Sequence record: OR539219.1
DNA: 64,000 nucleotides
Reading direction: 5' to 3' (one strand)
Source: Escherichia phage vB-Eco-KMB39
Each line of letters begins with the position of its first letter. Position 1 is the first letter of the stretch. Below, in pieces: positions 1,118 to 3,931 of the stretch. The notes beneath the pieces are model-generated. The model saw nothing but the letters and a program-made list of their open reading frames with translations. It did not search any database and was not told where the DNA came from. A program made the translations under genes and the position numbers.

Positions 1118-1675
1118 ATGTGGTCGGCAATTCTAGGATATGAAGTATCATATCATGATACAGTATCTGTTCCAATAGAATTAATGCCAAAGAATAGTAA
1201 TAAAATAGTTGACGCTAAATGTGATTTGTGCGGTATTAAATTTAGTAGAAGCATTCAGCTTTTAAATAGAACACCCACACATGCGTGTAGAAAATGCAGT
1301 ATTAAACAAGTTGCTATTAAAAATTCGGAAGTTCAATCCGGAATAAGCAGACCATGGCAAAGAGGCGATAAACATCCTCGATGGACTGGTAAAAGAAAAG
1401 AGTTTGCATTATATGCTAGTAGAGTTCATTCTATAACTAAGTCAGCTAAAATAAGAAAAATTTGGTCAAAATGGCCGAATGCTGATAAAATAGGAGTGTG
1501 CGGTGTAGAAGGTGCTTATCAACTCGATCATAAAGTATCTATCAAATATGGATTTGATAATTTAATTCCGCCGGAAATTATAGCAAGCGTAAAAAATTTA
1601 GAAATAATCACTTGGGAATCTAACCGAGAAAAGTCAAAAAGAAATAGCGTAGATCTTTGGGATTTACTAGAATGA
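1118..1675 (+). CDS. HNH-like nuclease (putative free-standing homing endonuclease) inserted between genes 18 and 19
   Basis: ORF track frame 1031-1675; first ATG at 1118 (MWSAILG...); two CxxC pairs (CDLCG, CRKCS) and C-terminal DH..N..N motif (QLDHKVSIKYGFDNL...NLEIITWESNREK); flanked by hairpins. Confidence 0.5.
   Translation: MWSAILGYEVSYHDTVSVPIELMPKNSNKIVDAKCDLCGIKFSRSIQLLNRTPTHACRKCSIKQVAIKNSEVQSGISRPWQRGDKHPRWTGKRKEFALYASRVHSITKSAKIRKIWSKWPNADKIGVCGVEGAYQLDHKVSIKYGFDNLIPPEIIASVKNLEIITWESNREKSKRNSVDLWDLLE

Positions 1676-2306: not shown

Positions 2307-3931
<1,625 letters not shown>

Follow-up and report, generated by a model that had tools for sequence, protein, structure and literature searches.

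A probable free-standing HNH-type homing endonuclease cassette between the tail sheath and tail tube genes of T4-like phages

What has come to lie between the tail sheath gene 18 and the tail tube gene 19 of Escherichia phage vB-Eco-KMB39, two genes that are adjacent in T4? The window that we analysed, 64,000 nt of this phage (record OR539219.1), is a segment of a Tequatrovirus (T4-like) genome with 99% identity to Escherichia phage VEc20; all features described below lie on its plus strand. The stop codon of gene 18 is separated from the ATG of gene 19 by 752 nt, whereas the corresponding gap in T4 measures 116 nt, and a direct comparison with T4 resolves the difference into a 644-bp insert (1031-1674) that stands in place of the octamer TACGGTGC. 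The insert carries a single open reading frame (ORF). We consider it probable that the insert is a promoter-less, free-standing HNH-type homing endonuclease cassette, with cleavage and homing being predictions derived from sequence comparison. A first-pass annotation of this DNA had noted the spacing of about 0.75 kb and proposed a free-standing homing endonuclease in the tail operon. The latter proposal is supported by the patchy presence of the gene, its fixed boundaries, the exchange of its DNA-binding module, homologs that occupy the same site with incongruent relationships, a tract of synonymous changes in gene 18, and the fusion of related catalytic cores to NUMOD3.

The boundaries of the insert are sharply drawn. 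They are identical in 10 Tequatrovirus carriers, and the octamer TACGGTGC is identical in 13 of the 13 empty-site genomes that we examined. On the right-hand side, the identity of the window with T4 restarts at ATTCTAAAGGCC, so that the last base of the TGA of the ORF is the first base of the shared sequence. The G+C content of the inserted gene is 32.8%, that of gene 18 is 40.7%, and that of gene 19 is 38.4%. Presence of the insert is patchy: the 18-19 site is occupied in about 116 of some 520 Tequatrovirus records (~22%), and it is empty in T4, T2, RB32, RB27 and most other members of the genus. An exact-pattern scan of IMG/VR for further Tequatrovirus junctions recovered four loci, all of them empty. 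The first-pass annotation had named universal presence at this locus as one observation that would count against its reading, and had called for a comparison of the junction in related phages; the gene is absent from ~78% of Tequatroviruses and is hence far from universal, and the comparison revealed the patchy insert with fixed ends just described. One record carries an odd host label for a T4-type coliphage, since OR584013.1, "Pseudomonas phage PsgM02F" (host Pseudomonas coronafaciens), is 97.8% identical to the Tequatrovirus insert region.

The ORF of the insert is a real gene that is under purifying selection. It is intact in all 10 Tequatrovirus copies sampled, and its ratio of non-synonymous to synonymous substitution rates (dN/dS) is 0.03-0.16, with, for example, 16 synonymous and two non-synonymous differences between the window and phage PP01. 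Searches by tblastn with the encoded protein yielded 242 phage records, in 232 of which at least 80% of the protein is covered, and the ORF matches phrog_5104 ("unknown function") with E = 5e-76. The 185-residue protein with two CxxC pairs that had been proposed initially needs revision at its amino terminus only: the frame 1118-1675 does encode 185 residues from an ATG, and the motifs CDLC...CRKC and QLDHKVSIKYGFDNLIPPEIIASVKNLEIITWESNREK are indeed present, but the reading frame is open from 1031 onward and translation probably starts at GTG 1070, giving a protein of 201 residues (1070-1675, TGA stop). We favour this start because a Shine-Dalgarno sequence, GAGG, can be read at 1059-1062, 7 nt 5' of the GTG, and the extra 16 residues (MIISKF...) are covered by 42 of 42 aligned homologs; because the alignment with phrog_5104 begins at profile position 18; because the records of T6 and ECML-134 annotate a coding sequence of 606 nt; and because GTG is also used at eight of the nine homologous loci inspected.

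Among the Tequatroviruses, the gene occurs in two forms. Allele A, the form present in the window, is found in about 74 records (e.g., T6, PP01 and ECML-134), and allele B in about 42 (e.g., RB5, RB10 and HP3). The first ~60 nt, comprising the hairpin, the ribosome-binding site, the GTG codon and the MIISKF segment, are ~92% identical between the alleles, and the last ~200 nt, which encode the catalytic core, are ~90% identical, whereas the ~390 nt in between, which encode the presumed DNA-binding module, are unalignable at a random-level similarity of ~43%. A comparison of the window with RB5 puts this into the context of the neighbouring proteins: gp18 is 99.3% and gp19 100% identical, the ORF product 56.5%, and its N-terminal part 37%. 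As judged from these alignments, alleles A and B are mosaics in which the DNA-binding module has been swapped at one locus.

Homologs outside of Tequatrovirus repeat this picture on a larger scale. In every lineage that we sampled, 10 beyond Tequatrovirus, they lie directly 3' of gene 18; examples are those in Dhakavirus UP19, Gaprivervirus RZ, Krischvirus phiS, Karamvirus KMB20, Jiaodavirus Roth21, Gelderlandvirus S16, Winklervirus CBH8, Shewanella phage Thanatos-2 and Sinorhizobium phage phiM12, in the last of which the gene that follows the homolog is not gp19. Pairs of occupied and empty sites exist here as well, with Roth21 carrying and Roth01 lacking the gene in Jiaodavirus, and KMB20 carrying and CC31 lacking it in Karamvirus. 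The N-terminal part of allele A is nearest to the copies from UP19, KMB20 and RZ (55-62% identity), and that of allele B to those from Roth21 and Thanatos-2 (61-62%). These N-terminal classes cut across genera, so that the history of the gene departs from the phylogeny of the phages, yet its landing site is constant; on the strength of these sequence relationships, we interpret the distribution as horizontal spread to a specific site. S16 seemed at first sight to hold a decayed half-gene, a notion that can be dismissed as a full-length ORF with a GTG start is intact and the record (NC_020416; locus L004, 2896-3216) merely under-calls it as a truncated protein of 106 residues. Enterobacter phage KMB20 holds a second paralog of the family (locus L020, 3210-3902; 230 residues; hhalign probability 99.9%, E = 1e-33), inserted at the late-promoter box just 5' of gene 19, which starts at 3871. 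KMB20 thus has two such genes in tandem between genes 18 and 19, and its gene 19 differs from that of the empty relative CC31 at nine of the first 30 nt. The type found in CBH8 and CHI14 (227 residues) may represent a gene-19-proximal subclass like this second paralog. In the 64-kb window, a search of all ORFs with the family profile found no paralog.

The DNA on the left-hand side of the insert deserves attention as well. Close to the 3' end of gene 18, a dense patch of synonymous substitutions covers 944-979 (codons A-R-S-I-N-Y-I-T/Q-L-N-F-V); without the A codon, the patch extends over 947-979 and reads R-S-I-N-Y-I-Q-L-N-F-V in the window. T4-type genomes differ from carriers at 14 of these 36 nt, all changes being synonymous except that in the T/Q codon, whereas divergence over 2.4 kb of flanking DNA is 2.5% and the next most divergent stretch of 36 nt contains five differences. 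The same contrast is seen in three genera: over the last ~120 nt of gene 18, occupied and empty genomes differ by 14-23 changes, nearly all of them synonymous, while the remainder is 0-3% divergent. Over the last 1,500 nt of gene 18, Roth21 and Roth01 differ at 32 positions, 19-23 of which fall into the final ~110 nt, where the two proteins are identical; KMB20 and CC31 differ at 23 positions in the final 120 nt, whereas each 30 nt of the 1,000 nt before it contains 0-2 differences. Near the junction, the right flanks show no differences. Our census of patch against occupancy covered 23 Tequatrovirus sequences and an evenly spaced sample of BLAST rows. Among the 23 sequences, all four carriers of allele A share one patch haplotype and five of the six carriers of allele B share another; the 13 empty genomes, a non-random sample, comprise six with the T4-type patch and seven with a variant patch. 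The I-N-Y codons read ATY-AAC-TAC in empty genomes of three genera and ATA-AAT-TAY in seven of 12 carrier lineages. A GCA/GCT polymorphism located 7 nt ahead of the stop codon of gene 18 was considered as a further marker of occupancy but does not track it. In addition, Klebsiella phage Roth21 shares 23 identical nt of the patch (GCGCGCAGTATAAATTATATTAC) with the allele-B Tequatroviruses and T2, which points to joint movement of the gene and its flank. Collectively, these comparisons lead us to view the tract as a candidate co-conversion scar, or as a candidate target or immunity site of the endonuclease; it probably contains or adjoins the cleavage site, together with resistant variants.

Is the encoded protein a nuclease at all? 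HNH or His-Me finger nucleases are recognised by a beta-beta-alpha-metal fold with a general-base histidine that ends strand 1 (often as D-H or H-H), a structural asparagine, and a helix-borne histidine or asparagine as metal ligand. In the protein from the window, a cryptic core of the HNN type (1499-1633) contains C144-G145, Y150-Q151-L152-D153-H154, N176-L177, W182, N185 and K188. Across 113 diverse relatives, only Q151, D153, H154, N176, L177, W182 and N185 are invariant, which yields the pattern D-H...N...N (D153-H154, 1526-1531; N176-L177, 1595-1600; N185, 1622-1624), and the same seven residues are invariant in alignments A1 and A3 as well. AlphaFold confidently modelled the whole protein with a predicted local distance difference test score (pLDDT) of 89.8 and the C-terminal domain with a pLDDT of 91.5 and a predicted template modelling score (pTM) of 0.79. 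In these models, D153-H154 close a strand (150-154), N176 precedes the next one (177-181), and N185 is located within a helix (182-188). The structural matches of the C-terminal domain are led by the Gme HNH protein (4h9d), followed by GVE2 HNH (5h0o) and, at a lower rank, T5 SciA (9qgx); Foldseek against the PDB returned weak matches to Cas9 HNH domains alone (E = 0.19). According to the models, the C-terminal domain thus displays the fold and the residues of a His-Me finger, with D153-H154, N176 and N185 arranged on a beta-beta-alpha unit, and conserved residues, predicted fold and module fusions together support the assignment of the protein as an HNH-type (His-Me finger) nuclease. By analogy with other HNH enzymes, the roles of general base, metal ligands and hairpin brace would fall to H154, to D153 and N185, and to N176, respectively. 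The HNH assignment of the first-pass annotation stands as far as the signature and the predicted strand-strand-helix arrangement are concerned; the match to a curated model that one would have liked to see, for instance to the Pfam entries PF01844 and PF13392 named at the time, did not materialise for the protein from the window.

The amino-terminal half appears to be built for another task. A zinc-binding module of the type CxxC...CxxC (C51, C54, C73 and C76; 1220-1297), treble-clef-like and resembling DUF4379, is presumed to bind DNA. Three of its cysteines are invariant and the fourth is present in at least 90% of the 42 aligned homologs. Against DUF4379 (PF14311, a probable treble-clef zinc finger), the protein from the window scores 14.2-14.3 bits, below the Pfam gathering threshold of 24.5 bits; weak matches to this domain occur in 15 of the 42 family members, the best with E = 8e-4. 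Zinc-finger proteins of the mS66 type are the top PDB sequence matches to the family profile (E = 0.0055), and the N-terminal region weakly matches PHROGs annotated as homing or HNH endonucleases. Presumably, the Cys4 treble-clef-like finger and the linker that follows it read the DNA sequence.

The catalytic core has a far wider distribution than the phages considered so far. An exhaustive search with a profile of the C-terminal domain collected 2,927 cluster representatives (50% identity) at E <= 1e-3, most of them proteins of ~200 residues with the core at their C-terminus. The N-terminal partners of the core include the Cys4 finger or DUF4379, repeats of the helix-turn-helix (HTH) types HTH_23, HTH_38 and HTH_7, DUF7487, and NUMOD3. 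One relative, P0235, reaches 33.4 bits with DUF4379 and thereby exceeds the Pfam threshold, and the fusions to NUMOD3 are clear-cut (E = 3e-15 and 1e-13; 56 and 51 bits, with 20.4 as the cut-off). NUMOD3 is known as a module from the regions with which homing endonucleases bind DNA. The core also exists on its own, in proteins of 106-114 residues, two of which were named McrA by JGI (the Joint Genome Institute). As read from these domain arrangements, a nuclease core is joined to interchangeable DNA-binding modules, as is the case in homing endonucleases. The idea that distant, HTH-fused relatives might likewise sit behind a sheath gene did not hold, since their upstream gene encodes a baseplate wedge protein. 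On two metagenomic contigs (L034, 4001-4897; L035, 4001-4927), such relatives are located 50-60 nt 3' of the baseplate wedge gene (phrog_219, E = 1e-19 to 1e-22), and the wider family may also favour sites beside conserved tail genes.

How would such a gene be expressed in its new surroundings? The Tequatrovirus insert is devoid of TATAAATA boxes, and nothing in it qualifies convincingly as a sigma-70 promoter or an intrinsic terminator; neither of the latter two kinds of signal is enriched in or around the insert, and no T-run follows either of the two hairpins at this locus. The first-pass annotation had placed hairpins on both sides of the gene, and both do exist, but just the left one is part of the insert. 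This UUCG-tetraloop hairpin, GGGGCUUCGGCCCC (1039-1052; -10.8 kcal/mol), lies directly 3' of the gene 18 stop and 5' of the ribosome-binding site, whereas the right one (1683-1700; -12.8 kcal/mol) is the native hairpin of the 18/19 intergenic region that T4 possesses too. Other genera have hairpins of different sequence at the same position behind gene 18. We considered whether RNA structure masks the ribosome-binding site and rejected this idea, as the 105-nt leader is no better folded than shuffled sequences (z = -0.27), with the tetraloop hairpin alone standing out. For homing endonuclease genes of T4-type phages, promoter-less cassettes and a hairpin beside the ribosome-binding site have been described (PMC2988022). 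Transcription of the endonuclease gene would probably occur by read-through from late gene 18 transcripts, and weak translation would start at the GTG just behind the hairpin. The variant gene 18 patch might contribute to this, as it yields TATAAAT(T) at 952-958, which has seven of the eight bases of the T4 late-promoter box and is located 72 nt before the gene 18 stop, where T4-type patches have CATTAAC; judged by its sequence, this element could be a candidate weak late promoter for the promoter-less insert. The flanking genes themselves retain their native arrangement. The 3' part of gene 18 (1-1030, beginning before the window start; TAA at 1028-1030) is 99% identical to annotated tail sheath genes, and gene 19 (1783-2274, ATG at 1783) keeps its own late promoters, as had been stated from the outset, in the form of two TATAAATA boxes (1702-1709 and 1761-1768) within native T4 intergenic sequence.

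These data lend themselves to a model for the behaviour of the cassette in mixed infections. In genomes without the insert, the zinc-finger half of the protein would recognise a site that lies at or close to the 3' end of gene 18, and the HNN core would nick or cut the insert-less allele there. A nick is plausible because the protein is small, has one active site, and counts nicking enzymes among its best structural matches; alternatively, a dimer might make a double-strand break. Recombinational repair off the carrier genome would then copy in the gene together with a short adjacent stretch of gene 18, and the synonymous changes in this stretch would render carriers resistant to cutting.

Several observations weigh against this reading. 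No HNH match was obtained in Pfam, NCBIfam or PDB sequence searches with the single protein and three family profiles, which covered the curated models PF01844, PF13391, PF13392, PF13395 and PF14279 as well as those of NCBIfam; traces of HNH_4 in two relatives (E = 0.06-0.08), among the 42 and a further 20 examined, were the only HNH signal there. The variant patch is present in about one third of the empty-site genomes in the evenly spaced sample, T2 included, and the carriers RZ, CBH8, phiS and phiM12 retain T4-like I-N-Y codons. Shigella phage sb2 combines a T4-like patch with an intact allele-B ORF. T-even genomes are mosaic in general, and a second, weaker cluster of polymorphisms exists within gene 18 itself (window ~280-350, some 680-750 nt before the stop), where 11 Tequatroviruses vary at 11 of 36 nt, mostly at third positions and with no evident link to the insert. 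Lastly, a gene that is of use to the phage and is passed on vertically would likewise be expected to show strong purifying selection and to keep strict synteny across a phage superfamily. As for sb2, it is the only sampled Tequatrovirus carrier with a T4-like patch; this patch has two private changes, including one from R to S, and the tail sheath coding sequence in the record is annotated as much shorter than gene 18 of other phages. This phage may be a recombinant, or its assembly may be of doubtful quality.

The most serious competitor follows from the last of the general points: a non-mobile accessory nuclease or DNA-binding protein that benefits the phage (e.g., as a regulator, or as a weapon aimed at host DNA or at co-infecting phages), with vertical inheritance at an ancient position behind gene 18, repeated loss and ordinary recombination accounting for its present distribution. 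The strict placement 3' of gene 18 in all lineages sampled, down to the distant phiM12, would be expected of such a gene, as would the very low dN/dS, the intact copies and the occurrence of variant gene 18 patches without the gene. We nevertheless regard it as unlikely, because the same octamer is found at 13 of 13 empty sites, which is unlike the outcome of independent deletions; because the similarities among the homologs are incongruent with those of gp18 and gp19; and because the DNA-binding module was exchanged at one locus, a synonymous tract adjoins the insert in three genera, and NUMOD3, a module typical of homing endonucleases, is found fused to some relatives of the core. That the protein has lost catalysis and acts as a DNA-binding repressor or regulator of the 18-19 junction on an HNH-like scaffold strikes us as improbable. 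It is true that no HNH model recognises it, that it is without the Cys/His zinc site usual in many HNH domains, and that enzymes of the I-TevI type double as autorepressors (PMC2988022), but the residues that remain invariant over 113 relatives are exactly those expected for catalysis (D-H, N and N). The location of the gene between those for the terminase (17) and the portal (20), together with the appearance of GVE2 HNH among the best structural matches, might finally recall the HNH helpers of the large terminase in packaging, such as HK97 gp74 or GVE2 HNH itself. We give this idea very little credence, given that ~78% of Tequatroviruses, among them RB32, RB27 and the normally packaging T4 and T2, do without the gene, that the T4-type terminase gp17 has its own nuclease domain (according to the annotation of the T4 record), and that a variable, sequence-reading N-terminal module would be unexpected in a terminase cofactor. 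A free-standing homing endonuclease cassette hence continues to be our preferred explanation for the insert.

A bolder version of the homing endonuclease reading can be put forward tentatively, as a possibility of which we are not yet persuaded. The gene would then be the founding example of a large cryptic HNH-type family missed by curated models (~2,900 representatives of the core), one branch of which tracks the 3' end of the sheath gene across the T4 superfamily, carries a short recoded stretch of gene 18 with it from genus to genus, and exchanges its zinc-finger reading head between alleles. If true, this would constitute a natural arms race, open to experiment, that pits a homing enzyme against an essential structural gene; the switch is predicted to lie in the codons, with ATY-AAC-TAC being cleavable and ATA-AAT-TAY resistant.

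Mosaicism and marker exclusion among T-even phages are driven in large part by homing endonuclease genes, which are also a source of sequence-specific nucleases. While free-standing HNH homing endonucleases are a well-known kind of element, this family itself is undescribed in the literature that we searched: full-text searches found no description of the gene, PHROGs lists the family as of unknown function, and nearly all sampled records call its product a "hypothetical protein". Where other names were given, they are at variance with the assignment proposed here, e.g., "putative head morphogenesis protein" in T6 (NC_054907; locus L031, 801-1406), "holin" in SYGD1 (MW883059) and "type II restriction endonuclease" in Roth21 (PQ657794; locus L003, 2597-3217); in RB5 (KM606995) and RB10 the gene is not annotated at all. 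A previous census counted one unnamed "other HNH" in T6 and none in RB3 (Petrov et al., 2010). Our findings reveal no new kind of biology, as the element is of an ordinary type for T4-like phages. They do allow some two hundred genomes of therapeutic and reference phages, that of T6 included, to be annotated correctly, and they would account for a hypervariable synonymous patch in an otherwise conserved tail sheath gene. They also indicate that the HNH models of Pfam and NCBIfam miss a sizeable clade. Moreover, they provide a simple test system, consisting of T6 as carrier and T4 or T2 as empty counterparts, with two natural alleles that differ in the DNA-reading module alone.

How does this putative enzyme compare with those already known? 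In I-HmuI and I-HmuII, nicking endonucleases of the HNN type from the Bacillus phages SPO1 and SP82, strand 1 carries an aspartate and a histidine, and the metal is held by the aspartate and a C-terminal asparagine. The protein from the window resembles them in having D-H...N...N instead of H-N-H and a modular DNA-binding part, and by analogy it would probably be monomeric with one active site, and possibly a nickase. No sequence similarity to I-HmuI or I-HmuII was detected, and the resemblance serves as a lead. They differ in being encoded within introns and in having an N-terminal catalytic domain, whereas the gene described here is free-standing and its catalytic domain is C-terminal. The structural matches Gme HNH (4h9d), GVE2 HNH (5h0o) and T5 SciA (9qgx) offer a parallel of a different kind, as they are small, stand-alone, metal-dependent nicking enzymes of the His-Me finger type with solved structures.

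Within the T-even phages, the closest counterparts are the Mob genes (MobA-E), which encode HNH-family homing endonucleases, of which MobE has been tested experimentally (PMC2988022; PMC2790892). Like these, the gene in the window is a small, free-standing and promoter-less ORF in an intergenic gap between conserved genes, with a patchy presence among close relatives, and its presumed target lies in a neighbouring essential gene, from which flanking DNA would be co-converted (PMC2988022; PMC2790892). Going by the descriptions of MobA-E, it differs from them in lacking a match to curated HNH models, in combining an N-terminal Cys4 finger with a C-terminal HNN core, and in its location at the 18/19 locus. 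With I-TevIII from the nrdB intron of RB3, it shares the union of zinc-finger DNA binding and an HNH core in a T-even enzyme (PMC2988022), albeit with another order of domains and at another locus. Its leader finally has a counterpart in seg43(25) of Aeromonas phage 25, a free-standing endonuclease gene whose ribosome-binding site is likewise immediately preceded, but left uncovered, by a stable hairpin (PMC2988022); that gene, unlike the HNH-type gene behind gene 18 described here, encodes a GIY-YIG (Seg-type) enzyme and resides in gene 43.

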